64,000 nucleotides of DNA from Candidatus Bathyarchaeia archaeon (GTDB taxonomy: Archaea > Thermoproteota > Bathyarchaeia > 40CM-2-53-6). The stretch covers positions 64,001 through 128,000 of the forward strand of contig JBEKVV010000003.1 in assembly GCA_049513715.1 (NCBI GenBank). Direction: 5' to 3'. Each line of letters starts with the position of its first letter. Position 1 is the stretch's first letter. Positions 3,193 through 22,290 of the stretch are shown here, piece by piece. Below the pieces are notes generated by a model that was not told the DNA's origin, did not search any database, and saw nothing but the letters and a program-made list of their open reading frames with translations. The translations under genes were made by a program, and so were the position numbers.

Positions 3193-3199
3193 TTATTTC

Positions 3200-4039: not shown

Positions 4040-4053
4040 GAAACAAGCACCTT

Positions 4054-4387: not shown

Positions 4388-4411
4388 TTAGGTTTGGACG
4401 TGTTTTTTTTT

Positions 4412-5680: not shown

Positions 5681-6149
5681 AGCGTTACTGAACGGCGGCG
5701 AAGCTAACGCTGGCCCACCCCTAGGCCCAGCACTTGGTCCGCTTGGTGTGAATGTTCTTCAAATCGTCAACCGCATCAACGAATTAACCAAAGCATACGC
5801 GGGCATGAAAGTTCCAGTCCGCGTCGTCGTTGACACTGATACGAAAGAATTCGAAGTTGAGATTGGGACTCCCACAACATCCGCGCTCATAGTCAAAGAG
5901 CTGGGAATCCAGAAAGGCTCGGGGAGCCCGAAAGCCGAGAAGGTTGGCAATTTGACGATGGAGCAAGTCGTCAAAATAGCTAACATGAAAATGCCGAGCA
6001 GCTACGCGAAATCACCCAAGACCTCAGCGAAGGAAGTCATGGGTACCTGCGTCAGCCTAGGCATAACGATAGAGGGCAAGGACCCCCGCGAAGCCCAGAA
6101 GGAACTGGACCAAGGCAAATGGGACCAAGCGTTCCAGAAAACTGGTTGA
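5658..6149 (+). CDS. rpl11: 50S ribosomal protein L11 (uL11)
   Basis: GGEANAGPPLGPALGPLG; likely TTG start at 5658. Confidence 0.97.
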   Translation: MGDKKQVEALLNGGEANAGPPLGPALGPLGVNVLQIVNRINELTKAYAGMKVPVRVVVDTDTKEFEVEIGTPTTSALIVKELGIQKGSGSPKAEKVGNLTMEQVVKIANMKMPSSYAKSPKTSAKEVMGTCVSLGITIEGKDPREAQKELDQGKWDQAFQKTG

Positions 6150-6185
6150 CCAAAGAACCGGTACGGTGTGTCTCGGTTTCCCCAA

Positions 6186-6845: not shown

Positions 6846-6875
6846 ACCAATTCACATTGCGACGAAGGCTAAGTC

Positions 6876-7340
6876 CTACGAGGCCTTCGTAGGGTAGACT
6901 ACGACCTTACCTTCCTTATCCTTGACCGCGCGCACAGTAATCTTTCGTGGGGGCTTGTTGATGCTTCGGGCCCAAATGGCCTCGTTAATCTCGTTGCTGA
7001 TGGAGACCTCTTCTGCTTTCATGTGACGGGACACGAAGTTCCTAACGTCCCTAACGGCGCGTGGTGCTCTCCTGCCGCGTGGCGTTACGACCCAGACGTG
7101 TCGGAGGGGGATTGTGTAGACTTTCTCTTCAACGACTTCAATTTCTTCCTCTCCTTCCCCTTCTTCAGCCTCAACTTCTTCTGCGGCTGGTGGGGTTTCT
7201 ACTGATTCTTCGGCTTCTTCCTCCGGCTCTGCCGTTCCTTCTTCTGCGGAGACTTCTTCGGTTGCTGGTAGCTCCGTCTCGTCGATCTCTTCTGCTGGTT
7301 CCTCTACGGTTTCTTCTTTTTTCGTTTCAGGTTCACTCAT
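6876..7340 (-). CDS. rpl31e: 50S ribosomal protein L31e with acidic N-terminal extension
   Basis: YTIPLR..RAPRAV..IWARSINKPPRKI; about 70-aa Glu-rich leader. Confidence 0.95.
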   Translation of the reverse strand: MSEPETKKEETVEEPAEEIDETELPATEEVSAEEGTAEPEEEAEESVETPPAAEEVEAEEGEGEEEIEVVEEKVYTIPLRHVWVVTPRGRRAPRAVRDVRNFVSRHMKAEEVSISNEINEAIWARSINKPPRKITVRAVKDKEGKVVVYPTKAS

Positions 7341-7353
7341 TGCTTCATGCCTT

Positions 7354-7509
7354 CTATGCTTTCATCGTGGTTCTGCGCCATGACCTCTTCTTTGGGTGAG
7401 TTCGAGTGTGTCCTTCGGTTTTGGCGATGACCCAAGTGGGTACAGCTTTCCTAGTCTTGGACGCCCTAGCGAGTCTGCGCTTTCTTGCGGTGGGTTTGTT
7501 CCTTGCCAC
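7354..7509 (-). CDS. rpl39e: 50S ribosomal protein L39e (missed by ORF track)
   Basis: Hand translation from GTG: MARNKPTARKRRLARASKTRKAVPTWVIAKTEGHTRTHPKKRSWRRTTMKA*; canonical position. Confidence 0.93.
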   Translation of the reverse strand: MARNKPTARKRRLARASKTRKAVPTWVIAKTEGHTRTHPKKRSWRRTTMKA

Positions 7510-7512
7510 TGG

Positions 7513-7860
7513 TCATGCTCTCCTGATTCGGATTTCTTTGCGTGACGATTGAAGTTTTGCTAGCGCATCCTTAAGCTGGTCGTCAGAAATGGGTAATTTC
7601 ACTCTTCCTGACTGGGCCAGCTGGATTAGTTGAAGTTCGACTTGGTCTGCGAATTCTGGTTTTACCATTCTTATGTTCGTCAATCTCTGCCTCGCCTCAG
7701 GGGTGAGTATCTGCTTGAGGGCAGCCTGTTTTTGAGCGTCATATTGCTTTCGAGTCTCCGCCTGCCTCTGTTCATCCATCGCGGCACGTTGAAGTTCCGA
7801 GTATCTCCTTTGCCTGATTGTGTTTAGTTCCTCGTCAGAGTACTCGTCCTCTTCACTCAT
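7513..7860 (-). CDS. PDCD5/TFAR19-like dsDNA-binding protein
   Basis: ILTPEARQRLTNIRMVKPEFA motif. Confidence 0.93.
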   Translation of the reverse strand: MSEEDEYSDEELNTIRQRRYSELQRAAMDEQRQAETRKQYDAQKQAALKQILTPEARQRLTNIRMVKPEFADQVELQLIQLAQSGRVKLPISDDQLKDALAKLQSSRKEIRIRRA

Positions 7861-7862
7861 CA

Positions 7863-8306
7863 CTACTGGCCTTCCGCCTTCTTGGCATTCTTGAGAATGT
7901 CGGCGGCCATACGATTGAGAAGGCTGATTCCTTCAGCTGTGAGTTTCCTGCCTTTCTTCGCCTCAACACCGATGAACCCCGCTTTCTGGAGTTGTTGGAG
8001 CGGCTCCCTGATGGCTGAGCCTCCAGCGGCCCGTGAGTGTTCAATGTGTGTGCCCTTGCGTAGGCGGCCTCCGTATTCGACTCTTAGGCGGGCTATTCCT
8101 ACTGGGCCGTGCAGGTACAGTTTCCGTAACAGAGAAGCGCAGCGCGTATACCACCAATCTGGGTTCGAAGGTGGGCGTTCCTTATGAGACCCTGTCTTCG
8201 CGGTCATTGCCCAAGTGGGGGGCGCCACTTCACCAACATTTTCCTTCAGGAATTTCGACAGACTGTCGATTAGCGTGTCTGAGGGAACTTCCAGTGGTGT
8301 TGGCAT
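7863..8306 (-). CDS. rps19e: 30S ribosomal protein S19e
   Basis: KTGSHKERPP..DWWYTRCASLLRKLY; likely start ATG 8306. Confidence 0.97.
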   Translation of the reverse strand: MPTPLEVPSDTLIDSLSKFLKENVGEVAPPTWAMTAKTGSHKERPPSNPDWWYTRCASLLRKLYLHGPVGIARLRVEYGGRLRKGTHIEHSRAAGGSAIREPLQQLQKAGFIGVEAKKGRKLTAEGISLLNRMAADILKNAKKAEGQ

Positions 8307-8368
8307 CGAATTTCCATCCGGTAGATGAGTCTTCAGGTTAGAATCGGAGAGGCCCATATAAGGTTAGT

Positions 8369-8677
8369 TTAGCGCCGAACACGATTCGCAGTCAAGCTTG
8401 AAATCTTTTTCTTAACTGTGGCCAATTCTCGCTTCTTGTAGAGCGAAAAGGTGTGACCCATTACTTCTACAAGTGTTGCCCCAGTCGACGCAGCCACATT
8501 CTTAGCCAAATCATCAGTGTGAGTTTCTTCTAACGCTGATCTTTGAACTTTGACCTTCACTAGCTCTCGGGCCTTAAGCTGACTTCGCACGTGGTTCAAG
8601 AGGTCCTCTGTCGTTCCTTCCTTCCCGATCCATATTGTAGCGTCGGTATGGCGGGACCGTACCTGAAGTGATCTCAT
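8369..8677 (-). CDS. yhbY: YhbY/CRM-domain RNA-binding protein
   Basis: IWIGKEG...QLKARELVKVK...MGHTFSLYK; start uncertain. Confidence 0.9.
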   Translation of the reverse strand: MRSLQVRSRHTDATIWIGKEGTTEDLLNHVRSQLKARELVKVKVQRSALEETHTDDLAKNVAASTGATLVEVMGHTFSLYKKRELATVKKKISSLTANRVRR

Positions 8678-9012
8678 GCGTTTCTTTTCGAAAGCCGTTC
8701 CCTCACTGTTGGGTATCGCTTCTTGGTTCCACATTCCAGGCAGGTGATTAATACCGTTGTCCCAAACTCGGTTCTTGTTCTTACGCGGCAATTAACGCCT
8801 GGAACGAGGAGGCTGCCGCAGCTCTTGCACAGGAATATCTTCTCCTCTTTAGGTATTCGAACTCCAGCCTTCATGCCGACGTATCGCGCAATCTCAACGT
8901 AACGCTTTGCCAAGTGCCGGTCCTTGGAGAACGCATCTTTGGCAAGCCCGAGCAGAATTTGGATTCGCTCACGGGCGATTTCTTTGGTGTTTCCGCTTCT
9001 TCTCCAAGCCAA
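8674..9012 (-). CDS. rnp4: RNase P protein component 4 (Rpp21)
   Basis: IARERIQIL, CKSCGSLLVPG, CLECG..KRYP; start uncertain. Confidence 0.93.
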   Translation of the reverse strand: MAWRRSGNTKEIARERIQILLGLAKDAFSKDRHLAKRYVEIARYVGMKAGVRIPKEEKIFLCKSCGSLLVPGVNCRVRTRTEFGTTVLITCLECGTKKRYPTVRERLSKRNA

Positions 9013-9102
9013 AGAACCGACCGCGGCAGTATCACTCTGCTCCACTTGTAACCTTTTTTGTAACATGAGACTAGGAGCGTGAAGAAGAAGGGTTATTGCG
9101 GT

Positions 9103-9831
9103 TTGGTACTCACCTTGGTTTTTGCCGAGTCAGCGCTTCAACTCATTCCCAAGGGGATCCAATCGCATCCTCAAATTGTGCAGTATGCGAAGCGACGGCA
9201 GAAAACCCCACCTGAAGTTCTGTTGGACAGAGCGTTTCACCACGCAGCAATGCAGCGTATACCTCGGTCCAATCGTTCCTTCCCACCGGAGACAATGGGG
9301 AGGCCTGACATCGTCCACACAAGTCTCCTTCAAGTGCTCGAGACACCTCTGAACTGGGAAGGCAAGCTTCGGGTCTTTGTTCATACACAGGACGACCAAG
9401 TGATTTCCATCAATCCTGAGATCCGACTTCCCAAGAACTACACACGGTTCGTAGGATTAATTGAGCAGTTATTCAGTGAAGGGCAAGTTCCGAAAACGGG
9501 CGAGGCTCTACTGAGCGTCGAAAAGATGCCGCTACATGGTTTGCTTAAGAAACTCAATCCTTCAAAGATTATCGCGTTCAGCATTTTGGGTAAACCCGCG
9601 TTGATGCGCGAGGTAGCAGATTCAGTATGCAAACTCAGAGAACCGTTGGCAATGATCGGCGGCTTCCCGCGCGGACATTTTACCGAATCAACCCGCAAGC
9701 AATCTCAGGCCCTGGTTAGTGTTGACCCTCAATCCTTGGACGCGTGGGTCGTTGCCGGGCGTTTTGTTTATGACTTTGAATGGTCCTTAGGGCTCGCAGA
9801 GGATAGAATAAAACAATCTCAGCACAGGTGA
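9103..9831 (+). CDS. nep1: Nep1/Emg1 16S rRNA pseudouridine N1-methyltransferase
   Basis: GRPDIVH, RLPKNYTRFVGLIEQL, IGGFPRG. Confidence 0.95.
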   Translation: MVLTLVFAESALQLIPKGIQSHPQIVQYAKRRQKTPPEVLLDRAFHHAAMQRIPRSNRSFPPETMGRPDIVHTSLLQVLETPLNWEGKLRVFVHTQDDQVISINPEIRLPKNYTRFVGLIEQLFSEGQVPKTGEALLSVEKMPLHGLLKKLNPSKIIAFSILGKPALMREVADSVCKLREPLAMIGGFPRGHFTESTRKQSQALVSVDPQSLDAWVVAGRFVYDFEWSLGLAEDRIKQSQHR

Positions 9832-10215
9832 TTGCACATGAGCGACGTAGAACTTGATAGAATCAAACGTCAGCGGTTAGTGGAGATGCAGAGAAAAATC
9901 GCTGCCAAACAACAGCAGGAGCAAACAAACACCGCGAAGCCCACTGAACCGGCGAAGGTTCTGCAGAAAGTGTTCGTGGGTCGGGCTTGGGAAGTTTACC
10001 ACGCGGCAAGACAACAGTACCCTCAGGTTGCTGACCAAATCTTCCGGGAACTTGCTGAGCTCGTTCAATCGGGACGTATCAGAGGGCCGATTACAGGAGA
10101 GCAGTTGTATGGGTTACTTCGCCAAATCGGGTTAGATGTTAGGCTCGAAACGAAGATTCAGGTTCTGGAGCACGGCGAGTTGAAGTCAGTCGCGGATAAG
10201 TTCCGCGGCAATTAA
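9832..10215 (+). CDS. Second, divergent PDCD5-like dsDNA-binding protein
   Basis: ELDRIKRQRL N-terminus; ITGEQLYGLLRQIG..VRLETKI. Confidence 0.8.
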   Translation: MHMSDVELDRIKRQRLVEMQRKIAAKQQQEQTNTAKPTEPAKVLQKVFVGRAWEVYHAARQQYPQVADQIFRELAELVQSGRIRGPITGEQLYGLLRQIGLDVRLETKIQVLEHGELKSVADKFRGN

Positions 10216-10408
10216 GGCAAAGCACCTTTGGGCAAGCTCTCGGTTTCGTGCGGTTGACCATCGCCGGGGTCCACGTACAGTTTTTCGCATTTTTCGCAAC
10301 TCCATGCCTCGTAATCCTTCAAATGCGATGGAGCAGCGCTCTCCAACCGAACCTCTACGATATACCTGCCCATGAAATTCATGGGCAATTTGCATTCGGG
10401 CACTTCAT
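10212..10408 (-). pseudogene. Small two-CxxC zinc-finger protein with apparent 1-nt frameshift near start
   Basis: ATG AAG TGC CC(-) GAA TGC would give MKCPECK...WSCEKCEK; one C missing in a C-run. Confidence 0.55.
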
Positions 10409-10710
10409 CTCATTCACCCTGAGAACCTGAGAGCATGAACTCTTTGATGCTACCTGAGATCTCTATTAGATTGTGATTTTAGGCACGAGAGTATGTCAAT
10501 ACATCATTGAAATCTCTTACTGGTTGAAGCATGAATCATAAGCGCGCGACCGTGATACGGTGAAATTGGCGGCGATTATTGAGCGATATTGACATTTGTC
10601 AGTTGCCTTCGACGCTGAGGAATTCATCCAACCTTTCGAAGATCCAATTTCCTTAGAAAAAATGGTTGGAGGGCCCTCGCCCTCCATCATGCTTCAACCT
10701 TTTCCTTGTC

Positions 10711-11646
10711 TTAGTCGTGTAAGCTGGCGGGTGAGTCATGTTCAGATCGCGTTAAGTTTGTGGGTCCTTGCGTTGTTGTTACTGTGGGCTGGATGTTTGT
10801 TGAATTCAATGGAGTAGTTGTAGCCAAAGTTTGGTTTGTTCCTGTGTTCGTTATTGTGGTTGTTGCCGCGGTCACAAGGGTTGAGTTTGTCGACTGGAGT
10901 GTTTCGGTGACTGTTGACGTGGCTTTGGTGGTTATGGTGCTGTTCGTGGTTGAGGAGAAGAGTAGGTCACTACTCGTGGTGCTCGTGGTTTCGTTCGCTA
11001 CGTTGGTTGAAGGGGTGGTAATCAGGCTGCTGGTTGTACTTAACACGGTTTCACTCGTTGTTGCGTTCTCAACGCTGCTAATTGTCTGAACTTGAGTTGA
11101 GGGATCAGAGCTGTTTGTGGTCGTGTTCTGAGATTGGATCTCTGATTCTGTCTGAGGTTGGGTAACAATTGCTGTCTGAGTTGTGGTTGTAACTTGTCCG
11201 GTGAGGAGGAGGGTGTAGAGAGGGGCTAGTTTGTTGTCGGGCGAGTTGAAGATGAGGTTGCTACCTTGCATGGTGCCGTGAAGTTCGAGTTGGAAATCCG
11301 TGTTGTTAGTGTTGGCGCTCGCATCAATTTGCACCTCGCCTTGATCACCGACCTCTCCGAGGCCGTTTGATATTGTGTAGTTTTCGGAACCAATATTCAA
11401 GCTGCCCGTGAGGTTTTGGAACTGGATATGACTGCCCCCGTACGAGACCACTATCCCAGTGAGGTTCATGTTGACCGAAGCGGGGTTTCCTTGTTTGGTT
11501 TCGTTGCCCATTAGGCTGGCTTGGCCAATTGCTGTGATGGTTACTGTGCCGGTTTGGAATTGATCTGCTTTGGCGATTGGTTGGAGCGTTAGAATTACCA
11601 TGGTGAGCAGGATTGTTAGGAGCAAGTGTCTGGTCTGGATTTTCAT
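10711..11646 (-). CDS. Secreted protein with beta-rich domain and Ser/Thr-rich tail
   Basis: Signal peptide MKIQTRHLLLTILL...AKA; Thr-rich C-half; domain resembles that of 57432..58163. Confidence 0.75.
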   Translation of the reverse strand: MKIQTRHLLLTILLTMVILTLQPIAKADQFQTGTVTITAIGQASLMGNETKQGNPASVNMNLTGIVVSYGGSHIQFQNLTGSLNIGSENYTISNGLGEVGDQGEVQIDASANTNNTDFQLELHGTMQGSNLIFNSPDNKLAPLYTLLLTGQVTTTTQTAIVTQPQTESEIQSQNTTTNSSDPSTQVQTISSVENATTSETVLSTTSSLITTPSTNVANETTSTTSSDLLFSSTTNSTITTKATSTVTETLQSTNSTLVTAATTTITNTGTNQTLATTTPLNSTNIQPTVTTTQGPTNLTRSEHDSPASLHD

Positions 11647-12205
11647 CGTTTCCACTTTTTTCTGTGCCGCTATTGACATACAGTGGGGTATATCAATGTT
11701 CTCCACATAGAACGTCATTGTTCCATATGGATTTCGAGACCCCTGATGGAAGAAAAGTCGCGGACAAATGACTGTCGCACTGTTACGAGCAATGAAATGA
11801 ATACGCATCAGGAAGAAGATTCACCGACCAGACCAACGTTTGGTTGGATTCTCGTTTGTGAAACTCAAAGTAGGCGACTGCGAGATTCCGGAACGATGCA
11901 ACTGACACAAATTCGTTTTTTCTCAAACCAAAATCTCCCTTCAAAGTTTCGCCGCCACATACTACGGTGGTTTATAAGCCTCGGCATATTTCGAAGACAC
12001 GAATCAAATCGGCTCTGATCCTTTTCCACGCCAGTCATTGGAACGGACTTCGACAAGCGGATTCCGTCAACACTTTCGTTCTAGGCACGAATTGCTTTCG
12101 AAGAGCGATTACAGATAAGGTGCAATCGCGATAACGAATCAGCGGCTCGCTCATGTTGAGCAACTGTTCACGAAGAGCGAATCAGGAAGCGGGATTGAAG
12201 ATATA

Positions 12206-12841
12206 GTGAGTATGATGCAAGCAAATCGTTTGTTGCCTTTGCTTACGGATTCGATCTTCATCGTACTCGCCCTTTATTTCGTGGTAACTTACACGCGTTC
12301 ACTGTGGATACCTCTGCAACAGCAAACGTTGCTTTTCTTGGTCCGTCAGACCTTCTTCTTGATTGTTCAGCTTATGGCGCTGGCTCTCTTTCTGGTAAGA
12401 AAGAGTGCGGTAAATTTCTCGTCGAAGATTGGTGATTATGTTTGGACTCTACTAGCGTTGGGTTTGCCGATGCTCCTTCGGCCAGTTCTTGGGTTTGCTC
12501 CTTCGATTGTCAGTTTTTCTCTGGAACTGATCGGGATAGTTCTGGTGCTGGGGGCGTTTTTGTCCCTGAATAGGAGTTTCGGTATTGCGCCTGAGAATCG
12601 GGGAATCAAAACGAAGGGCGTGTACCGTATCGTGCGTCACCCGATGTATTCGGGCTACCTTCTCACGGAAACCGGTTTCGTCCTCAGTAATTTCTCGCTC
12701 TACAACGTTCTCATTTTAGCGGCGGCTGCACTTTTTCTAGTACTAAGGCTAATGGCGGAGGAACGGTTCCTGAAAGAAGACCCAGCATACCTAACGTATG
12801 CTCATAAGACTCCTTGGAAGCTACTTCCCTTTATCTTCTGA
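12206..12841 (+). CDS. Isoprenylcysteine carboxyl methyltransferase (ICMT/STE14/PEMT) family membrane protein
   Basis: GVYRIVRHPMYSG and EERFL motifs. Confidence 0.9.
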   Translation: MSMMQANRLLPLLTDSIFIVLALYFVVTYTRSLWIPLQQQTLLFLVRQTFFLIVQLMALALFLVRKSAVNFSSKIGDYVWTLLALGLPMLLRPVLGFAPSIVSFSLELIGIVLVLGAFLSLNRSFGIAPENRGIKTKGVYRIVRHPMYSGYLLTETGFVLSNFSLYNVLILAAAALFLVLRLMAEERFLKEDPAYLTYAHKTPWKLLPFIF

Positions 12842-12891
12842 AATGTGCTTCGATCCATCAATTGAAACTCAACTGGATCCGGTCGTAGTCA

Positions 12892-13668
12892 TCATTGTGG
12901 GATTGAAGCAGCAGGCTCCGCCGGTGAGGCGTATGCTAGGTTTTGGATGTAGATATCGCCTAACATGCAGATTTTGGGCGTGTAGAATGAGTTGCAATAC
13001 CAAGATGAAGGGATCACCAGCATCCCCGTTACGTTCGATACGTACGTGCCGTTCGGCGCGTTTGTCGAGAACGGGCTGCCGTCGGCGTTGAGGAGCCTGT
13101 AATACCGCGGTGGAGGATAGCAGGCCATTGAACCGGTGCAACCGACGCCGGGCGGAACGTAAAGGTATGTTAGAAGGAATGAAGGCGAACCGCACCGCGG
13201 GGAACATTGTGGGTTTTCCACTACTTCATAGATGTACCCGCTAGTTGTAATCGTCATGCCGCTGATTGTGGTTGACTGCTGCGTGGAACCGCTGATTACT
13301 GTTGCGCTTGTCTCAGTCGCGGTACCACTACCGTAACTAACGGATGCTGACATGATGGAAATCGAAACCACTCGGACTGCTGCCTTGCCCTGCATACAAT
13401 AGCTCGCTGCCTTACTGTCCAAGTAGCCGACCACCGTGACTTTGGTGCCAACAGGAGGATAATTAGACCAACCAATCAGGAGATATTGCGTTCCTCCCTC
13501 AGTGCGAAGGAGCATGCAGCCAGCCTCGACTCCTGACTCTAAAGTTCCTGTTACTGTAATAGAATTCGAATCGTTGTTGAGGAAAGAGACTGCGGAGGCG
13601 AAGTACAGACCAGCAATCAAACCCGAGAAGACGACAAGAACGGAAACAATCGCGGTCCGCCTATTCAA
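12892..13668 (-). CDS. Membrane-anchored/secreted Cys-rich hypothetical protein
   Basis: N-terminal TM; GVEAGC..L..G.QYLL OB-like segment; several Cys pairs. Confidence 0.65.
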   Translation of the reverse strand: MNRRTAIVSVLVVFSGLIAGLYFASAVSFLNNDSNSITVTGTLESGVEAGCMLLRTEGGTQYLLIGWSNYPPVGTKVTVVGYLDSKAASYCMQGKAAVRVVSISIMSASVSYGSGTATETSATVISGSTQQSTTISGMTITTSGYIYEVVENPQCSPRCGSPSFLLTYLYVPPGVGCTGSMACYPPPRYYRLLNADGSPFSTNAPNGTYVSNVTGMLVIPSSWYCNSFYTPKICMLGDIYIQNLAYASPAEPAASIPQ

Positions 13669-13948
13669 AGCTCATCCAGCATGGAAAGAGAGTGCACTGT
13701 GACGATAAATCTAGAGATTAGAACGGATCCATGTGTGGAACTCAGAAGATTAACCGTCAGATATGACTAATCTTTGAACCCCTCAGGAACCCCACTGCCA
13801 CGAAGGTATTCCAGTAAGCAATCAGAAGTAGTGATATGAGCTGTAAATCCCTCAGCCAAAATGCCTCACTGCGGAAGAGAAATCGAAAATGTGTTTACTG
13901 CAACCTTAGTGGGATTCGTTTGAGCTCCTAACCCTAAAGAAGACCAAC

Positions 13949-15829
13949 ATGCCCCTACGAATCTTCCAGCGAGAAGGAGGACAGAAGCAATTGACAACGG
14001 ACATGAACATGGCCTGGCTTGTAGACGCCTCATATCGAGGAGGACAAGTGAATCTCAAGCTCATTCGGACAACTGATCTCGAACCTATTCAGTGGAGCGA
14101 TTCCAACTTCAAACCTTACTACCTAACTTATGATGAGCAGTACGGTGAACCTGTCAAGAAACTCAACCTTTTTGCAGGCAACGAAGTGAAACTTCAGAAG
14201 GTCTCCTACTATGAGAGACCGCCAAAGAATACCCAAGGCTGGGAGTTGGACATCGACCCGGCGCTCAGTTACGTTTACGATAGAGGACTTGTCTTCGGCG
14301 TTCCGCATTGTTTTGAGAACGGTGCTTGGTTGCCGCAAATTTCCATAGCCGACGAGCAGCTTACTCGATTTGAAGAGCTCTTCGGGGAAATCAAAGCTAA
14401 GGATCCTTTGAAGTTCGCTTTGGTGAAGGAGGCGTACGCTTATGCGGCGCAACCGGTTCCGCGAATCAAGCCGGAAAATCTTGGCCTTTCGGGTGGTTCT
14501 GAGGAGGATTACTACAACGCTTTCCTACTGAGCCGTATCGCGAACCTGCCAGTATCCAAAACCTACAGAAACTACTCCGTCTCCGAATGGATTCGCTCAA
14601 TGCTCTACACCTACTATCGAGCCCACAACATTCTCATTCCGACCCCTGAAGAGCTGAAACTTGGCGATACAAGGAAATACGTAACGGGCGCGCTCACGAT
14701 TGCCCCCGAGTCAGGGACCTATTTCAACATGTACGTGCTCGACTTCGAGTCCCTCTACCCAGGCTGCATTGACACTTTCAACCTTTCCTACGAAACTGTA
14801 CGGTGCCTCCACTCTGAATGCCAACGGAACCTAGTTCCGGGTCTAGATTACAATATCTGCACTAGGCGACGTGGAATCTACTCCGCCCTCACAGGAGCCC
14901 TACGCGACCTTCGCTTACGAGTCTTCAAACCTCTCACCAAAGCGAACCCGTCAAGTACAGACAAGAACATGGCCGCAGCCTCTCGCATTCTCAAACTGTT
15001 CCTAGTCTCATGTTTCGGAGTGACCGTTCGAATCAAAGGTCTAGCAAGCCCTCTTCTAGGTGAGGCGATCACAGCGTACGGACGTTACGTTTTGCAGTCG
15101 ACGTGGGATATGGCCAAGGACGCAGACCTCAAACCAAAGTACGGCGACACTGACTCGGTTTTTCTTGACAACCCGCTGGAGCAAGATGTGAGACAATTCA
15201 TCCAGGCGGTTAAGAACCGGTTCGACCTGCAATTGGCGTTTGACCGCGTTTACTCGGTTTGCGTTCTAAGTGCTGCCAAGAAAGCATACTTCGGCATCCT
15301 ACCAAACGGAGAGCCCGAAATCAAAGGGTTGTCGATTGCGAAATCCAACTCCCCCAGATTCTTCCAACGAACATTCCAAAACTGCCTCAACAGACTCTCC
15401 AAAGGGCGCCGCTCCGCCAGCGACTTTGAGTTAGCTAAGAAGCAACTGCCCGACGTGGTTGGGGGGGCGATTCACGAACTTCGAAACGGGAGTGTCGACT
15501 TGTCGGACCTTGAGTACCGAGTCGAACTGCGAGATGACCCACAAGAGAAAGCGCGATCGAAGACACTTCCGCAACCGTACCAAGCGGCCTGGCTTCTTTC
15601 AAAGGAAGGAAAGAAAATCTCCAGGGGAGAGGTTGTGGGTTTCGTTAAGGTTAGACCTTTCAAGGTTCAAGGAAGGCAGTATACCGTAAAACCGACTACA
15701 CAAACAGACCCGAGAGAGATCAATGTGAACGACTATGTTCGAAACCTCATCTCTTCGCTGTCCCAAACCTTCGAGCCCATGGGACTCAGCCTCGACATGC
15801 CCGAAACCAGCCTTTCGCGATTCCTGTAA
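13949..15829 (+). CDS. polB: Family B DNA polymerase, PolB1-like, lacking 3'-5' exonuclease domain
   Basis: Motif A DFESLYP, motif C YGDTDS, KKAYFG, KGLS; only 626 aa; no Exo I-III motifs. Confidence 0.88.
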   Translation: MPLRIFQREGGQKQLTTDMNMAWLVDASYRGGQVNLKLIRTTDLEPIQWSDSNFKPYYLTYDEQYGEPVKKLNLFAGNEVKLQKVSYYERPPKNTQGWELDIDPALSYVYDRGLVFGVPHCFENGAWLPQISIADEQLTRFEELFGEIKAKDPLKFALVKEAYAYAAQPVPRIKPENLGLSGGSEEDYYNAFLLSRIANLPVSKTYRNYSVSEWIRSMLYTYYRAHNILIPTPEELKLGDTRKYVTGALTIAPESGTYFNMYVLDFESLYPGCIDTFNLSYETVRCLHSECQRNLVPGLDYNICTRRRGIYSALTGALRDLRLRVFKPLTKANPSSTDKNMAAASRILKLFLVSCFGVTVRIKGLASPLLGEAITAYGRYVLQSTWDMAKDADLKPKYGDTDSVFLDNPLEQDVRQFIQAVKNRFDLQLAFDRVYSVCVLSAAKKAYFGILPNGEPEIKGLSIAKSNSPRFFQRTFQNCLNRLSKGRRSASDFELAKKQLPDVVGGAIHELRNGSVDLSDLEYRVELRDDPQEKARSKTLPQPYQAAWLLSKEGKKISRGEVVGFVKVRPFKVQGRQYTVKPTTQTDPREINVNDYVRNLISSLSQTFEPMGLSLDMPETSLSRFL

Positions 15830-15859
15830 CTGCCATCTTGCTTTGAGTGTGTCCGCCCT

Positions 15860-16105
15860 TGTCAGCGTGTATGCCGCCCTCTCATGGGTGGCTGCCGCCC
15901 ACCCCCCCTTGTTACGGTGCGGGGCACGTGTTCATGGGTGCGGGAGGCTCGTGGAGCATGCCTGACGCTTTCGTTTAGTAATGGGCCACAAAACTGCCCT
16001 ACAGCCCCCCACCCCACACCTAACAATAATAGAAAAGGTGGGCCACACCTGAGAGTGGGTGTACTCCACCCGCGAGGGAGTGGACCCCACCCAATGCCTC
16101 GCCAG
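15860..16105. repeat. Cluster of highly degenerate G/C-tract site copies
   Basis: e.g. GGGTGCGGGAGG-CTCG-TGGAGCATGCC and GCCCACCCCCCC; non-coding, composition unlike flanks. Confidence 0.35.
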
Positions 16106-16294
16106 TCCAAGAGAATACGTCTGTCCAAGCTGTGCATTTCCGATGCATAACCCGTGATATTCTTCGCATGTATCGCGCGAACCAAGCTTCTAGGAGACAA
16201 GAGCTTCCGCGCGTAGCTTGCATAGCGCGGCGGTTGCGGAAGCCAGCGCCGTGGAGGGTCATTTTTGGATACTTCCTAACAGGAAGGCGGTTTT

Positions 16295-16362
16295 GTGTGG
16301 TTCTTGTGTGTGCACGCAAACGAGAACAAGAAACTCGACGGTTCAAATCTCACTTGTCCCCT
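16295..16362 (-). repeat. Degenerate two-site composite unit
   Basis: GTGTGGTTCTTGTGTGTGCACGCAAAC...AAGAAA...GACGGTTCAAAT, same layout as 20027..20119. Confidence 0.55.
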
Positions 16363-16464
16363 GTTTCGTCGGGTTTGATGCCTATTTCTGACCTCAGTTC
16401 GTTCCATTTGGTTTTCGCCTTCGACCAAAGCATTATCTCATTTGCTGATTGTTATCCAGTTCGA

Positions 16465-17265
16465 ATGACTTTGATCGACCATCGAAAAATCGTCGAGTCG
16501 ATTGTCAAGACGATTGAGAATGAGGAAAGTGTGCAGGGCGTCTTTCTCTCGGGTTCCCTAATCAATGAGAGCAAGGATCAGTTTTCAGACATCGACCTCG
16601 GAATCGTCTCAGTCAACAGCCAGGAAGCCTTCGAGAAGTCGTACTCACTGCGGCACGGTATCATCGAAGCTGTCGGTAAGCCGATTGACTCCTTGGAGCG
16701 CGGCTGGGAAAACTGCAAGATGATGACGGCACTCTATGGCAGGACGCAATTTCCCCCTCTTGGGCTCGAAGTTGATGTAATCTTCAGTCAACTCCGTCAT
16801 GTCTCCGAGCAGATACCGTATGCGGATTATGAGATCGTATTTGATAGGTCTGGGATGCTAAGACAGGCACTGGCCAAGCTTAGCCGTAGGAAACCCAAGG
16901 AAGAAGTCCAGAAGGAAATCCGACTGCACCTAACCAGTTGCCCCTTCTATGTTCATGACGCGCTCAAAGCGCATGAAAGAGGAGATTCACCGCCATTCCA
17001 CATGTTGCTAAATGAAATTCGAAAGCTAGTCTTCTTTGCTGCGGCTGCAAGCAGAGACCAGCAGGTGTACGGATCCAAACGTGGACTGAAATATCTCTCA
17101 GCGAGTGAGCGGCTCTCTTTCGAGTCATCATACTATGGTTTCAACAAGGGCACGGTTCAGAAGCTGACCGACCTTTACGTGGCGAAGCTGAAGGAGTTGG
17201 AGGTGCGTTATCAGGTTGTGCCTGACGTGGAAAAATTTCAGAGAACGTTGAAAGAACTCCTCTGA
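16465..17265 (+). CDS. Pol-beta-superfamily nucleotidyltransferase (aminoglycoside/lincosamide adenylyltransferase-like)
   Basis: LSGS...DQFSDIDL motif plus helical C-domain; real start ATG 16465. Confidence 0.8.
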   Translation: MTLIDHRKIVESIVKTIENEESVQGVFLSGSLINESKDQFSDIDLGIVSVNSQEAFEKSYSLRHGIIEAVGKPIDSLERGWENCKMMTALYGRTQFPPLGLEVDVIFSQLRHVSEQIPYADYEIVFDRSGMLRQALAKLSRRKPKEEVQKEIRLHLTSCPFYVHDALKAHERGDSPPFHMLLNEIRKLVFFAAAASRDQQVYGSKRGLKYLSASERLSFESSYYGFNKGTVQKLTDLYVAKLKELEVRYQVVPDVEKFQRTLKELL

Positions 17266-17353
17266 GCGGGATAAATGGATAATCACCCCCCCCCAGGGGG
17301 GGACCCTAACTTGAACCACCATCTCCCGCGTATGTGGCCAGAATGATGCTGGC

Positions 17354-19294
17354 TCAGACTTTGAGATGTTGCGTAAAGAATTCCGTGATTCGATTGTAGC
17401 ACGTTACTCTGTTGTTGAATTTTATGACGTCGTGGCCTTCATCTTCAAAGACCAAGTAATCCACAGGTATGCCTCGAGACCGCAACCGTTCAACGACATC
17501 AGCGGTCTCTCTTTCGACGACGCGTGGGTCATTGCGGCCTTGAATCATGAGCATCGGGCACTTGACATGATCAATGTGCACGAAGGGAGAGCGCTCTAGG
17601 AGGAAATCTTTGTCCTTCTGGGGGTCACCAATACTCAAGACAAAGCTTGTGCGCCAGGTTGGAGGCAGCCGTTCCATGAAAGTAATCAGATTGTATGGTC
17701 CGAACATATCAACGCCAGCACTCCAGAGGTTCGGGAATCTTGAAACTAAGGTTAATGTCATGTATCCGCCGTAGGACCTGCCGATTACAGCTCGCTTGGT
17801 GGAGTCGATGCGGTTATCCTTTTCAAGTATCTTCAATCCCTCGACCTGGTCCAACGCGTCATTTCCTCCCCAGTCATGGTCAACCATCTTCATGAACTTC
17901 AACCCGTAGCCGGTGCTTCCTCGAACATTGGGTACGAAGACTGCGAAACCGTTCAGTGTTAGGTATTGGATGAGAGGCATAGAGAACCATGTGAAGTCAG
18001 GTTTCTCTTGGCCCTGAGGTCCTCCATGAACGTAGAGCACGAGCGGGTATGGTTCTTTCAGGCCAAGTGCCTTCGAGGGTAGGTAGAGGCGTGCGCTTAT
18101 CCGTAGGCCATCGAAGCTCTTGAAGCTGGCATCCTCGCCATGGGACAGGTATTTTTCGTCGATTCCTAGCACTCGTTCCGATGATAAGACCGAGTATTTC
18201 CTCTGCTTGGTGGCCCCTGGGTTGAAGAGGTAGAGCTGGGATGGACTTATGGCCTTCGTGAAGGAGAAGGCGTATCCAACCTTTCCCCTCTTTCTAGGTT
18301 CGATAACCCAAGGTTCGATTCCAAGTACGACACCATCCGATGTTGGTGGTTTCCCGACGATTGTCTCTTCAATAGTGAACCGAGGCTTCGAGCCGTCATG
18401 GTACGTTCCCTCGTAAATCCAAGAACAGCCGTCAATGTTGTATTGCAATAGATGTTGATTCCCTTGGACCTTGCGTACATCCACGAGTTCTCCGGCACCC
18501 TTGTGCTTGATTCCGCTTATAGGAACGGGCACGAGTCGAGAAGGATCATCAATTCGAAGATAGGCTAGTGAGCCATTATCGTGGAGCAGAGTGGTCGTGA
18601 ATAGAATGCCCCGCCCGCTCTCAGTGAAGTTGCATCTGGCTATTCCAGATGGAGCGTATTCCTTGTTCTCCTGCCGTTTGTCAATGGGTACGCCGAAGAA
18701 CAGCTCTCGTCTTTCTGTGCCCTCCTTCCAAAGGTATAGAACATTGTCAGCAGCCGTATATCCATCAATCAGAATCACCCGCGAGTGACCTTTGTTGGTT
18801 CCCGCGCAGTAGTTGCCATAGATACTAGTACCGAGCGATGTCTCCCCAAAGGTTTCCAACTCGACTTTGAGGCATTCTATGTCCGGGGTCTTCCTGTCGT
18901 CGCGGTAAAAGTATGCAATGCTTGCATCTCTGTCGTAATGTATGCAGGCAAGTTGCTGCTTCTGATATTTCTCTCCGAAAATCGATTGAGGAATTCCTCC
19001 TTGTAGGGGTATGAAGCAGGGTTGGTAGTTCTCGTCTCCATTGTTGTCTATCATCACCAGAATTCTTTCCAACTTAGGGAAGACGACGAAAGATTCCCCA
19101 ATCATCAAGTGCGGGTTCTGGAGCGCAATTCCTGAAGGCAACAAAGGCTCCGGGAGGCTTCCGTCCCTACTCATGCGATAGAGGCTGATAGCACCACTTG
19201 AATCGCTCAAGAAGTACAAATAATCGTCGACCAATTGTGGCGAAAGCAAACGCCTAGCCGACAGCAAGGATTCTAACGGAAACTTGCTAGTCAA
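17354..19294 (-). CDS. S9-family peptidase (acylaminoacyl/prolyl oligopeptidase)
   Basis: HGGP, GRSYGG, NDPRV, DEGH. Confidence 0.95.
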   Translation of the reverse strand: MTSKFPLESLLSARRLLSPQLVDDYLYFLSDSSGAISLYRMSRDGSLPEPLLPSGIALQNPHLMIGESFVVFPKLERILVMIDNNGDENYQPCFIPLQGGIPQSIFGEKYQKQQLACIHYDRDASIAYFYRDDRKTPDIECLKVELETFGETSLGTSIYGNYCAGTNKGHSRVILIDGYTAADNVLYLWKEGTERRELFFGVPIDKRQENKEYAPSGIARCNFTESGRGILFTTTLLHDNGSLAYLRIDDPSRLVPVPISGIKHKGAGELVDVRKVQGNQHLLQYNIDGCSWIYEGTYHDGSKPRFTIEETIVGKPPTSDGVVLGIEPWVIEPRKRGKVGYAFSFTKAISPSQLYLFNPGATKQRKYSVLSSERVLGIDEKYLSHGEDASFKSFDGLRISARLYLPSKALGLKEPYPLVLYVHGGPQGQEKPDFTWFSMPLIQYLTLNGFAVFVPNVRGSTGYGLKFMKMVDHDWGGNDALDQVEGLKILEKDNRIDSTKRAVIGRSYGGYMTLTLVSRFPNLWSAGVDMFGPYNLITFMERLPPTWRTSFVLSIGDPQKDKDFLLERSPFVHIDHVKCPMLMIQGRNDPRVVERETADVVERLRSRGIPVDYLVFEDEGHDVIKFNNRVTCYNRITEFFTQHLKV

Positions 19295-19414
19295 GGCATA
19301 TTCCTTCTCGATTTCCCACAGTGAACGCGCAGATGTTTACGCCTTTCTGAGTCTCAACGCCCCCTGTACACGGCAACAACCACGCCGAAAAACTCCGCTC
19401 GGTCTTCGCCTGCA

Positions 19415-19443
19415 GGGGGGTGTGCACACCGCCAGACCCAACA
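19415..19443 (-). repeat. Dyad site (degenerate)
   Basis: Minus: TGGGT-CTGG-CGGTGTG-CACACCCCCC. Confidence 0.6.
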
Positions 19444-19497
19444 GGCCATCACACACACTAACAACAAACAACAGAACACAAATTGCCGTTTGTTTCT

Positions 19498-19527
19498 TGT
19501 GTGAGCGCACCAATGGACTTACACACC
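19498..19527 (-). repeat. Dyad site overlapping GNAT stop codon
   Basis: Minus: GGTGTGTAAGT-CCAT-TGGTGCG-CTCACACA. Confidence 0.85.
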
Positions 19528-19980
19528 CAGGAACGGTTGGTGGAGATTCAAGTTGTAGAGGCGGCGGTCGCTTTGAAGGAAGCCTATGGAACGCCAGAAT
19601 ACTGGGGCCAACTCGTTGGTGGGCAATACTTCTAGACTGACCTGCTCAGTCTTCGTTGCTTTTGCCTCTGCGATGAGGCGGGCGGCGAGGGCATGGCCTA
19701 CACCCTTGCGGCGGGAATCCGGATTCACAAAGAAGTCTTGGATTATTAGCATTCTGCCGAACTCCGCAGAAGGCAGATAGAATGCGAACGCCACGCCAAC
19801 GATCACTGTCTTCTCCCGTGCCACCAGGATCAGCCCCGATGATTCATTCTGCAACAGTTGGTCTACAGCCCAAGCGATCTTCTCATGGTTAGGCCTCAGT
19901 CCTTCAGAAGCGTGGTAGGTTGCTATCATTTGCTCGACCTCACTTCGATCAGTAGGAGATGGTCTCTCGATGACGATCAT
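19519..19980 (-). CDS. GNAT family N-acetyltransferase
   Basis: FFVNPDSRRKGVG acetyl-CoA motif; N..A..FWRSIGF. Confidence 0.92.
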   Translation of the reverse strand: MIVIERPSPTDRSEVEQMIATYHASEGLRPNHEKIAWAVDQLLQNESSGLILVAREKTVIVGVAFAFYLPSAEFGRMLIIQDFFVNPDSRRKGVGHALAARLIAEAKATKTEQVSLEVLPTNELAPVFWRSIGFLQSDRRLYNLNLHQPFLGV

Positions 19981-20026
19981 GTGCTATGTCAGATTGTGAA
20001 AGGTCATCGGAACGGATTTAGTTTTT

Positions 20027-20058
20027 GTGTGTGTGGGTGTAGTGGTGCGCACACACAC
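20027..20058 (+). repeat. Complete (prototype) dyad site
   Basis: GTGTGTGTGGGT-GTAG-TGGTGCG-CACACACAC, 9-bp perfect outer inverted arms. Confidence 0.9.
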
Positions 20059-20066
20059 AAGAAAAC

Positions 20067-20119
20067 GCTTGAACTGACGGAGCAAATTACGATGCCCGCA
20101 CCATCAGTGCACATACACG
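20067..20119 (-). repeat. Dyad site plus linker
   Basis: Minus: CGTGTATGTGCA-CTGA-TGGTGCG-GGCATCGTA-ATTTGCTCCGTCAGTTCAAGC, near copy of 3141..3192. Confidence 0.88.
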
Positions 20120-20226
20120 AAAACCGGCGTCGTTCATGTAATTTTGTGCGTATCCAAATTCCAACAGAACCGTAAAGTACATTTGTGTGCGATCGTGATG
20201 CATTTTCGGAGTTGTGTGTTTGAGCA

Positions 20227-20862
20227 ATGGGGAATGAAGTACTGGATGCCATTATGCAGCGACGCAGTATCTATCAGTTCAAGCCTGAGGCAGTCCCTAT
20301 TGAGAAGATTACTTCCATTTTGGAGGCGGGTCGTTGGGCTCCGTCATATGCGAATAGTCAGCCATGGGAATTCATTACTGTAACTGATAGCAAATTGAAG
20401 GAGGAGGTTGTCGAGATAGCGAAGGAAACTATGGCTGCGCATGCAGGAATAGAAGGAGCGCACGCAATCATCGCAACATGTGTGGATCCCGAGAAAGATC
20501 AATACCACTTCATTGAAGACGGTGCTGTAGCAACACAGAACATGGCTCTGGCAGCACATAGCCTGGGGCTAGCGACCTATTGGGTCGGGATATTGAGTTC
20601 TACGAACGATAGGAAATCAGTCGAGCATAGAATCAAGGAGGTCCTGAACATACCTGAAAGGATGCGCTTGATTTCTTTGTTGCCCGTGGGTGTGCCTGCA
20701 TATAGTGTAGAGAAGCAAAGAAAGCGGTTGGAGCAGATTTGCCACATTGACAAGTATGGCAGCAGACCATCAGGTGTGGGAGTAGAGGATCAGGGCAACA
20801 AGACAGAGATGGAAGCACCGAGACATGGAATGAGAGCACAATTGCCCACCACACCAACTTGA
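20227..20862 (+). CDS. Nitroreductase family protein
   Basis: RRSIY.F, APSYANSQPW, QNMALAAHSLGL. Confidence 0.95.
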   Translation: MGNEVLDAIMQRRSIYQFKPEAVPIEKITSILEAGRWAPSYANSQPWEFITVTDSKLKEEVVEIAKETMAAHAGIEGAHAIIATCVDPEKDQYHFIEDGAVATQNMALAAHSLGLATYWVGILSSTNDRKSVEHRIKEVLNIPERMRLISLLPVGVPAYSVEKQRKRLEQICHIDKYGSRPSGVGVEDQGNKTEMEAPRHGMRAQLPTTPT

Positions 20863-21046
20863 TTGAGTGGATCATGAGCCAACGTCAGGAGAAGACTGGA
20901 CTTGGAACTTATTCTATGCAAGTCTAGCATTAAGGAGATTCATCGAAGACCTGAAGAAAGATAACAACTAGGTCCCTTCGAACGAGTGAGATCCGAAGCC
21001 TAGCAGACCTAGAGCCTGTATTAGAGGACGCGCATCCTTGGACAGT

Positions 21047-21249
21047 CTAAGAAGTCCTTTCCATCGTATTGACTGAAAGTTGGGTTCTTTGTTCTTTCCG
21101 GAATTGCCGAACATTCGACGCAACAAACCATGTCTCAATGGGCAGATTGAGAATGCTTACAAGCACGAGGGGAATTGCGATCCATACGAATCCTAGCCCC
21201 ACAAGTCCGAATCCTATAGGAAGCAAGACCGTTAGGTTTCCAGTCTCTT
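21047..21249 (-). pseudogene. 3' fragment of a membrane-protein gene cut at a dyad site
   Basis: Two TM-like segments plus charged tail; upstream frame runs into the site at 21250. Confidence 0.45.
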
Positions 21250-21280
21250 GGGGAGGGTACCAATGGTGCGCACCCACGAA
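21250..21280 (+). repeat. Dyad site
   Basis: GGGGAGGGTA-CCAA-TGGTGCG-CACCCACGAA. Confidence 0.82.
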
Positions 21281-21333
21281 CCCACTTCCAACACCTGGGT
21301 CGCGCTTGAACAACAGCTACATCAAATTGCGGA

Positions 21334-21915
21334 CTAAATCATTATGGCGGCCGCGATTGCTGTCGTCCACAGTCCGTCTTTGTTGCCTTCCACCGATTGG
21401 CAAATGCTTCTGGTAGTAACCCTCTTGCCAGATATGTTCCATATCTCTTGCTTGATGTCCCAGGCGTTGTCGACGTCAAACGGCACACCGTATGTCGACG
21501 CGAGCATTGATGCAGCCAGATCTTCCGCATAGTCACCAGCTCTCTCCTGAGTCTGACCGTACGACTTGTGTTCAGAAAGGTAACCATACAAGGTCCGGTC
21601 ATTCGGCATTGCCATTCCTACGGATGTAGCGATCAACCTATTGGGTTCATTTGTGTCGATGCGACTCATCACGCAGAACAGGATCTGACCAGGTTTCAAT
21701 AGCGCCAAGCCCTCGTTCTTGGACAACACCGTGCAGTTTGGAGGCAAGATACTTGACACGTAAACTAGGTTGCAGGAGGCGATTCCCGCGTCGCGAAGAG
21801 CTAATTCGAAACTCGCCAATCTTTCTTTGTGAGTACCCACACCTTTTGTGAGGAATATCTTCTCAGGTATGTGAGCGTTCATCTGAAATTCTGGTCCACA
21901 GTGTTTCTCAGACAT
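21334..21915 (-). CDS. pdaD: Pyruvoyl-dependent arginine decarboxylase
   Basis: SFELALRDAGI..NLVYVSSILP self-cleavage motif; GYLSEH. Confidence 0.95.
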   Translation of the reverse strand: MSEKHCGPEFQMNAHIPEKIFLTKGVGTHKERLASFELALRDAGIASCNLVYVSSILPPNCTVLSKNEGLALLKPGQILFCVMSRIDTNEPNRLIATSVGMAMPNDRTLYGYLSEHKSYGQTQERAGDYAEDLAASMLASTYGVPFDVDNAWDIKQEIWNISGKRVTTRSICQSVEGNKDGLWTTAIAAAIMI

Positions 21916-21967
21916 TCTTGAAGATTGTCATCGCCTATGATATGTCTCGCGCATTCAAGCAGTTTTC

Positions 21968-21996
21968 GTGTAGGTGCGCACCATTGATACCCCCCC
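21968..21996 (-). repeat. Dyad site
   Basis: Minus: GGGGGGGTA-TCAA-TGGTGCG-CACCTACAC. Confidence 0.85.
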
Positions 21997-22148
21997 AGAA
22001 CCACTAATACTCGAGAAGCAACGATGCCTTGGCGAGAATACACGGCGCCCACTTCTCACTTCTTTTTCCTACCTTTCATCCACGTGTGACGCGCTTTAGT
22101 TATTCGCGGAAATACTTCGAAAAGAAGCGATTGCCAGAGGTCGATTTT

Positions 22149-22187
22149 GTGTGTGGGTCCAGTGGTGCGGCCGCCGGGATTTGAACC
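22149..22187 (+). repeat. Dyad site formed by tRNA-Gly 3' end plus downstream flank
   Basis: GTGTGTGGGT-CCAG-TGGTGCG-N9-ATTTGAACC; TGGT is the tRNA ACCA end. Confidence 0.9.
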
Positions 22188-22290
22188 CGGGCGTCTCCTC
22201 GCCTTTTTGGGGCGATCAGAAGCGTGGCAGGCTTACGTCAGCAGACCAATGTCGCTGTTCCCGTCCTAGACCAGGCTAGACTACGGCCGC
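22163..22290 (-). tRNA. tRNA-Gly(GCC) with two non-canonical introns (29/30: 22258-22233; 45/46: 22216-22193)
   Basis: Acceptor GCGGCCG/CGGCCGC+ACCA, T-arm CCGGG-TTCAAAT-CCCGG, anticodon loop CTGCCAC; removal of two BHB-like introns gives a 78-nt cloverleaf. Confidence 0.92.

Follow-up and report, generated by a model that had tools for sequence, protein, structure and literature searches.

Archaeal mobile elements are known to integrate into the 3′ ends of tRNA genes, and displaced 3′ fragments and "gene capture" have been described in connection with such events (PMC8371274; PMC7253208, PMC6563490, PMC4383910; She et al. 2001, as cited in PMC8371274). Other described systems that resemble the locus reported here include the pdif/dif modules of Acinetobacter plasmids, whose ~28-bp sites have inverted arms (PMC6449649, PMC13141974, PMC5790767), and integrons together with clusters of attC sites lacking integrases (CALINs), among which archaeal examples are known (PMC9668308). 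In Thermococcales, an integrase of the pTN3 type produces inversions between tRNA-like sequences (PMC5495485). Here we describe an array of short sites that lies behind a tRNA-Gly gene in a Candidatus Bathyarchaeia genome of 2.79 Mb (G000). The array is contained in a 64,000-nt stretch of contig JBEKVV010000003.1, hereafter called the window, to which all positions refer unless another contig is named. We interpret the array as the tRNA-anchored member of a dispersed family of attachment (att)-like sites for site-specific recombination that descend from the tRNA-Gly 3′ end, an interpretation in which our confidence is about even. On our best reading, these sites bound captured gene modules.

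The array resembles each of the known systems in part, yet it lacks defining features of every one, namely a far-end repeat and integrase, a Xer enzyme, an IntI integrase with the attC layout, or a transposase. As in archaeal gene capture, an intact tRNA gene stands at one end, fragments resembling tRNA 3′ halves are present (here the T-type sites described below), variable cargo begins directly past the CCA end, and the tyrosine integrase of a provirus lies beside such a fragment. Unlike in gene capture, about 100 sites occur per genome, most of them away from tRNAs, the palindromic P-type sites have no tRNA part, the modules consist of one gene each, both orientations occur, and an integrase is missing from the array and from some site-rich genomes. 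The far-end direct repeat of a tRNA 3′ fragment that characterizes islander-type insertions is absent, the array's only T-type site apart from the tRNA end (core at 20103) being inverted, and no match to PF00589 was found among the open reading frames (ORFs) of 10388–22162 or in the rest of the window.

The first-pass annotation of the window had likened the array to Acinetobacter pdif modules, and this analogy holds only loosely. Short inverted-arm sites do bracket small accessory-gene modules that are found in varied contexts, and site orientations do alternate in the window. However, the sites mimic a tRNA end rather than chromosomal dif, they lie in an archaeal chromosome, alternation breaks down across the genome, and there is no Xer orthologue; the best XerA candidate falls under the model cut-off and is patchily distributed, leaving no Xer-type enzyme for the pdif-like system that had been proposed. 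Similarly, integrons and CALINs are matched by single, promoter-poor accessory genes (GNAT, glyoxalase, nitroreductase) that stand between imperfect palindromes, often without an integrase, but here IntI is lacking, cassettes are not co-oriented, and the sites come from a tRNA end. By inspection, the aligned units do not follow the attC layout (R″-L″...L′-R′ with GTTRRRY), as their outer runs are GTTTT/AAAAC and their cargo occupies both strands, and integron-integrase models reached only 42.5 and 24.2 bits against cut-offs of 265 and 435. The main text of PMC9668308, taken apart from its supplements, has 0 occurrences of "Bathyarchae". As with the pTN3 integrase, recombination between dispersed short tRNA-related sequences would reshape the chromosome, although there a known plasmid integrase makes large inversions at few sites, whereas here many sites surround gene-sized modules. 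Casposons carry a Cas1-type integrase (PF01867), to which G000 has 0 matches despite the accessory family-B DNA polymerase in its variable region.

The site array and its tRNA-Gly anchor

Six motif copies centered on TGGTGCG lie within 19360–22190, with the core T of TGGT at 19512 (−), 20043 (+), 20103 (−), 21264 (+), 21983 (−), and 22163 (+) (Table 1). All six had been predicted in the first pass, at 19498, 20027, 20097, 21250, 21968, and 22149, and these positions agree with ours when the flanking arm is counted. The predicted alternation of orientation is likewise borne out in the window, where 5/5 neighboring pairs are opposite. The motifs are more frequent than chance would provide. The window has 18 copies of TGGTGCG where 8.1 are expected and 8 copies of the 8-mer TGGTGCGC where 2.0 are expected, with none of 100 shuffles attaining either count; moreover, 6 of the 18 TGGTGCG copies are packed into 2.7 kb.

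The full unit formed by sites 2 and 3 is the top-scoring nhmmer match of the entire genome (78.5 bits, model positions 2–94). The two sites around pdaD, which had been singled out as mutually most similar, are each other's best match and share an unusual G-tract arm; the pair flanking the GNAT gene is at least as close, matching at 30/44 positions. Hairpin covariation between arms found no support, the variant arms of the pdaD pair being able to pair at only ~4/7 positions by eye. Decayed sites had also been proposed near 15860–17320. One decayed full unit is present there, but 17285–17330 is doubtful and 15980–16036 belongs to a different repeat. This second repeat, of ~60 bp (..ATGGGATACAAAACTACCCTAC..CCCCCACCCCACACCTAACAATAATAGAAAG), recurs at at least 7 other places in the genome with 86–95% identity; its match spans 182 bp at C8:9716–9898. 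The repeat raises contig depth in 4/4 runs.

Table 1. Features of the array and its surroundings (window positions).
Feature	Position	Strand	Basis or remark
Conserved core block	5000–10387		Spt5, L11, eIF6, L31e, S19e, Rpr2, Nep1 and others; neighbor of tRNA-Gly in relatives
Genome-specific variable region	10388–22162		ORF365, PEMT-like, ORF207, accessory PolB, nucleotidyltransferase, S9 peptidase, then site array
Decayed full unit	16293–16351	+	nhmmer E 0.017, model positions 4–65
Additional degenerate P-type site, CGGT for TGGT	19401–19432	−	sequence reading; under nhmmer threshold
Site 1, P-type, overlaps GNAT stop codon	19495–19530	−	sequence and profile
GNAT acetyltransferase	19519–19980	−	PF00583
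Full unit: site 2 (P-type, +, core 20043) facing site 3 (T-type, −, core 20103)	20025–20130	+	tRNA-3′-half-like piece between
Nitroreductase cassette, gene 20227–20862	20110–20891	+	common to two other species
Filler (gene fragment of the first-pass annotation), 88-aa ORF 21047–21313 (−) with no Pfam family	20893–21245		Pfam scan
Site 4, P-type, G-tract arm variant	21246–21281	+	reciprocal best match of site 5, 29/44 positions
pdaD, pyruvoyl arginine decarboxylase, between inverted sites 4 and 5	21334–21915	−	PF01862, 200 bits
Site 5, P-type, G-tract arm variant, upstream of pdaD	21966–22001	−	nhmmer E 2e-4
Site 6, T-type, the genuine one	22145–22176	+	arm GTGTGTGGGT, spacer CCAG-TGGT, then tRNA acceptor strand
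tRNA-Gly(GCC), two insertions, CCA encoded at 22163–22165	22163–22290	−	array anchor

That the last site is the CCA end of a tRNA-Gly gene, as the first pass had it, is supported by a match of 22166–22290 (−) to RF00005 (42.4 bits, E 9.6e-08, with the region searched alone), by an anticodon loop, CUGCCAC, that specifies GCC and hence glycine, and by the encoded CCA. The two insertions in this gene cause scans of the whole window to miss it (ARAGORN, 0 genes; Rfam at the gathering score, 0 matches). With introns allowed, the calls made by ARAGORN were unreliable, and the tRNA-Gly was named Val. Across the genome, RF00005 yields only 19 tRNA matches, 18 of them above the gathering score; introns or insertions in many tRNA genes probably hide them from standard scans.

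The 3′ 26 nt of the tRNA-Gly gene are identical in 9 relatives whose flanks differ, such that an intact tRNA gene is retained at one end, and all compared flanks diverge directly past ...GCACCA. In relatives free of insertions, the native flank reads ACCA-(T)CAGAC, which matches the spacer of the site family and the first bases of its arm, and the flanks of several relatives retain ..AGAC, the same as the site spacer. By this agreement the core of the family looks to have been copied from the tRNA-Gly 3′ end. Among the 18 tRNAs of the genome detected by Rfam, this tRNA-Gly is the only one with the family arm downstream.

A dispersed family of sites

The array had been regarded as specific to the tRNA, but it is one of ~30 clusters of a family of about 100 copies. 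The 8-mer TGGTGCGC has 121 copies in the genome, ~45 of which share a long common context. When a 95-position profile built from 11 aligned full units was searched against the genome with nhmmer, it returned 97 non-overlapping matches at E<0.05; the clusters that these form have internal gaps of 0.3–4 kb, use both strands, and in many cases lie at contig ends. Two more small arrays of the family are present in the window, at 3141–4455 and 54668–58331, and the former encloses a gene for a RusA-type resolvase (3650–4039).

The anatomy of the sites was read from all 386 TGGTGCG anchors. A P-type site consists of two inverted 10-bp arms, GTGTGTGGGT and GCGCACACAC, separated by an 8-bp spacer of the form nnnn-TGGT that contains the ACCA of the tRNA, with runs of T and A outside the arms. 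In a T-type site the second arm is exchanged for a piece resembling a tRNA 3′ half, including acceptor strand, T-stem, and T-loop. A full unit of ~95 bp is a P-type site and a T-type site placed face to face, and its ends are inverted over 21–24 bp, as are the terminal inverted repeats of a miniature inverted-repeat transposable element (MITE). Full units are diverged, their pairwise identity being 62% at the median and never above 83% (55 pairs), with the arms and core kept, and half-sites and T-type-only sites outnumber full units. The possibility that T-type sites are real tRNA genes was rejected, given that 20 neighborhoods produced a single weak match (21.5 bits, under gathering) and four arrays produced none. 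Where two sites overlap head to head, at G330:C9:33484–33515 and at G000 C3:422021–422032, the two left arms enclose a perfect TGGTGCGCACCA palindrome.

Of 401 genomes sampled from the class, 52 contain the pattern GTGGGTNNNNTGGTGCG; a reversed-pattern control gave 0–2 matches per genome. The pattern is abundant in the genus to which G000 belongs (g1), with up to 33 matches and presence in 20/22 genomes, and likewise in a second genus of the same family (g14), with presence in 10/10. It is scarce in a third genus (g2), with 1–2 matches in each of 3/22 genomes, and occurs in a few genomes of other Bathyarchaeia families, for example with 20, 17, and 9 matches. Nothing describing this repeat family turned up in full-text searches of the literature.

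Site orientations do not strictly alternate across the family as a whole. In a set of 71 strictly filtered sites, which leaves out two of the window's own, neighboring sites at least 150 bp apart have the same orientation in 16 pairs and opposite orientation in 13. Orientation is therefore about random genome-wide and the perfect alternation seen in the window is local.

Across arrays, the cargo consists of small accessory enzymes, many orphans, and some ordinary genes. The accessory cargo includes several GNATs, glyoxalases, an isochorismatase, hemerythrin, an arginase-family protein, and ferritin. Contig ends of the assembly overlap at 88–99.5% identity and coincide with site arrays, examples in G000 being C1 end/C10 end, C3 end/C4 end, C7 start/C11 end, and C4 start/C5 end/C6 start/C8 start. 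Breaks in the assembly seem to fall where cassettes are duplicated or vary between strains.

Cassette exchange and an insertion hotspot

The DNA downstream of tRNA-Gly is an insertion hotspot. The conserved core block of the window is collinear with five relatives (G013, G014, G016, G018, and G021) at 70.3–70.6% DNA identity, and collinearity with all five stops at 10385–10387. In these relatives the block begins 117 (G021), 801 (G014), 1376 (G018), 1883 (G013), and 3766 nt (G016) past the 3′ end of tRNA-Gly, and in G000 the distance is 11.8 kb. A variable, accreted region behind tRNA-Gly had been predicted, and the five relatives do differ in content and length before the conserved block; gene content downstream of the tRNA is thus not identical among them, and the proximal junction falls exactly at the CCA end. 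The suggestion that the array extends through the S9 peptidase and nucleotidyltransferase genes is correct for the accreted region, which continues to ~10388. One ORF of this region is partly common to two relatives, its nucleotidyltransferase is 89% identical to that of another species (G007), and its accessory family-B polymerase is patchy and multicopy in the genus. The existence of one large island spanning 3141–22163 was rejected, as 5177–10215 holds core translation genes. The polymerase, a fourth, short one of family B encoded at 13949–15829, has 3 matches in G012 and is found ~4 kb from family sites in G002; it may be the remnant of a self-replicating element, but Cas1 is absent.

The cargo that had been assigned to the array, namely GNAT, nitroreductase, and pdaD, is placed by Pfam at the array positions. 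For the nitroreductase segment (20110–20891), identity reaches 93.3% to G014 and 91.0% to G019, compared to ~70% (70.5%) for core DNA. In these two genomes the segment has different surroundings and in each it lies beside a family site. Its left similarity edge abuts a site arm in 3/3 genomes, belonging to a T-type (−) site here, a P-type (−) site in G014, and a P-type (+) site in G019, and its right edge coincides with a degenerate site in G014 only. Five further cassettes, from fetched stretches of relatives, match G000 at 86–95%, and in those inspected the similarity covers the outer run and the first 7–10 bases of the nearer arm and then ends. Judged by these identities, cassettes have been exchanged between species. 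The filler at 20893–21245, by comparison, appears nowhere among the matches listed for 40 relatives.

The breakpoints lie inside the central ~14 bp of the sites. Two pairs of cassette copies within the genome are 99.5% and 96% identical; in each pair one copy is joined to a P-type half and its partner to a T-type half, and both pairs switch inside the central GGT-nnnn-TGGT-GCG. These copies lie at the ends of contigs, and they may stem from strains that were assembled together (contamination estimate, 8.8%). A crossover in the T-loop of the unit was considered, as some solo sites diverge past GGTT, but was rejected as the main point of exchange, given that the near-identical pairs switch in the central core.

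The pdaD gene is present in a single copy in G000. Nine relatives carry it at another location amid unrelated flanks, with only the ~600-bp gene in common (85–95% identity among them), and across the ten genomes (L043–L051 and the window) the shared block is gene-sized, ~600 bp, at 76–95% identity. In G014, a half-site and a homologue of the window's ORF207 lie just upstream of pdaD.

DNA of G000 occurs in 24 public runs labeled as peat or wetland metagenomes. One run contig covers 16006–23500 without differences, and neither inversion nor excision of the array was seen in the contigs of four runs, although contigs cannot reveal rare variants. A minor contig of 340 nt has the region upstream of the nitroreductase gene beside a differently oriented arm (a joint of 20024/20124 on "opposite strands"). 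We read this sequence as another context of the nitroreductase cassette and not as an inversion at this locus.

Proposed mechanism, alternatives, and candidate enzymes

By analogy, the array would work most like serial site-specific integration at a tRNA end combined with secondary recombination. The arms GTGTGTGGGT and GCGCACACAC flank a center that matches the last bases of the tRNA, its CCA, and the first downstream bases. Mobile DNA bearing such a site would recombine at the end of tRNA-Gly or at any copy of the site already in place, with strands exchanged within the central ~14 bp. Every event would add one module and one new site, and later inversions or deletions between sites, together with decay, would leave single genes bracketed by sites of either orientation. 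The catalyst would be a site-specific recombinase, most likely a tyrosine integrase that arrives with viruses or integrative elements and does not reside in the host.

A bolder possibility, which we put forward only tentatively, is that several Bathyarchaeia genera run a previously undescribed system of gene-cassette exchange that is an archaeal functional counterpart of integrons and dif modules. In such a system, a palindromic site of 28–36 bp that mimics the tRNA-Gly 3′ end and is present ~100 times per genome would serve an unrecognized recombinase, carried by viruses or belonging to a new family, for the insertion, inversion, and exchange of single genes, among them housekeeping genes such as pdaD, both inside a species and across species. 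Should the sites prove active, they would constitute a main route by which accessory enzymes are gained and reshuffled in abundant uncultured archaea of peat and sediment, and cassette-style gene capture would have been invented a second time, independently, outside bacteria. The sites also serve as a simple sequence marker for recently exchanged Bathyarchaeia genes, explain the assembly breaks at arrays, and provide a defined DNA substrate for tracing the missing enzyme.

Several observations weigh against our interpretation of the array as part of a recombination-site family bounding captured modules. There is no recognizable site at the right edge of the nitroreductase similarity in G000 and G019, nor at the distal edge of the variable region (10388–10710). 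The pdaD gene is conserved as a gene only, and relatives do not share the 50 bp that separate it from its sites. In the contigs of the four runs, which date from 2017–2020, the main arrangement is unchanged and gives no sign of current activity. At E≤1e-5, PF00589 has no match in site-rich G018 (98% complete, 25 pattern matches), G330, G155, or G189, and three tested integrase families of G000 are patchy, being present in 12, 5, and 6 of 59 genomes. Finally, an integrase adjoins a site at one locus only, that of the provirus described below, and 10 loci carrying homologues of this provirus integrase contain 0 family sites at E<0.1.

Some of these points are also what would be expected if the sites were passive scars, that is, leftover att junctions of many independent dead integrations of viruses or plasmids that targeted tRNA-Gly, with the single-gene modules as deletion remnants that are now immobile. 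A resident recombinase was not found, the arrangement was stable in four runs, the full units are old and diverged (as their median identity attests), a T-type site borders a provirus, and decayed units lie within the array. Nevertheless, scars do not account well for ~100 copies that are mostly distant from any detected tRNA, with the arm at only 1/18 tRNAs, or for arms and core that are kept the same across several genera. Moreover, cassettes are 86–95% identical between species whose core identity is 70%, and therefore the exchanges are recent, and near-identical cassette copies join different half-sites within the assembly. We consider this explanation unlikely, though it is the strongest of the alternatives.

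Alternatively, the repeats could act simply as dispersed similarity, such that ordinary homologous recombination after DNA uptake swaps the intervening DNA and no dedicated enzyme is involved. This would be in keeping with the lack of any enzyme that correlates with the sites, with the nearly random orientation of neighbors (16 same versus 13 opposite), and with cassettes that adjoin either arm type. However, the stretch common to each site is only ~10–36 bp and of low complexity, the two near-identical intragenomic pairs switch at the same central core and not along the arms, and homologous recombination does not require a strongly conserved asymmetric core with the tRNA end, all of which make this route quite improbable. 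We give least credence, and very little, to a selfish repeat resembling a MITE or the repetitive extragenic palindromes and bacterial interspersed mosaic elements (REP/BIME), in which the ~95-bp unit would itself be mobile, landing between genes with coincidental variation of cargo, for although the unit has 21–24-bp inverted ends around a short interior and its copies, found between genes in either orientation, interrupt the assembly at contig ends, G000 has no Y1/HUH (RAYT-type) transposase and no Cas1, near-identical copies are absent (maximum identity, 83%), no target duplication flanks the inspected units, half-sites and T-type-only sites are more numerous than full units, and it is the cargo that is conserved between species, homology stopping inside the sites.

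No enzyme among those tested tracks the sites (Y1_Tnp, Cas1, resolvase, PF00589 in 59 genomes, and the three G000 integrases). Searches of G000 gave 0 matches each for Y1/HUH transposase (PF01797), Cas1 (PF01867), and resolvase/serine recombinase. The best tyrosine recombinase of the genome is a 319-aa protein (C5:218586–219545) with a XerA score of 181.6 bits against a cut-off of 220; relatives at 63–66% identity are found in only four other genomes of the genus, and a XerA-like protein is present in 12/59 genomes of the family.

Scans of viral contigs identified three records with true family sites. A 14-base pattern gave 120 matches that were mostly due to chance, real sites being 2 of the 80 loci fetched, a 17-base pattern gave 5 matches of which 2 were real, and the P-type pattern gave 0 matches. 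On a provirus contig (IMGVR_UViG_3300035179_000013) that is a fragment of a head-tailed virus, a 363-aa tyrosine integrase with a zinc ribbon is encoded 250 bp from a T-type site, and the flank past this site is homologous to the region downstream of tRNA-Gly in G014/G013. Homologues of this integrase occur in 9/22 genomes of g1, 3/10 of g14, and 0/22 of the site-poor g2; the one in G000 is 50% identical (C1:532002–533024). Among 10 homologue loci, 3 lie beside tRNA 3′ ends, two of which are Gly-type. Only one relative was found in viral contigs, on a contig that ends before any site could appear. The provirus integrase is thus a lead rather than a demonstration.

Distant homologues of the provirus integrase (32–34% identity) at two further loci, L206 (G002:C46) and L207 (G017:C4), lie ~200 bp from a second 3′ end of tRNA-Gly type (…CGGCGGCCGCACCA), with a flank in common that has no GTGTGTG arm. 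In G000, the 319-aa recombinase and four orphan ORFs occupy a 4.4-kb segment (C5:215709–220190, L040) between a T-type site and what appears to be another tRNA 3′ end (…CCCCCGCACCA), undetected by Rfam, and this segment is possibly a small integrated element.

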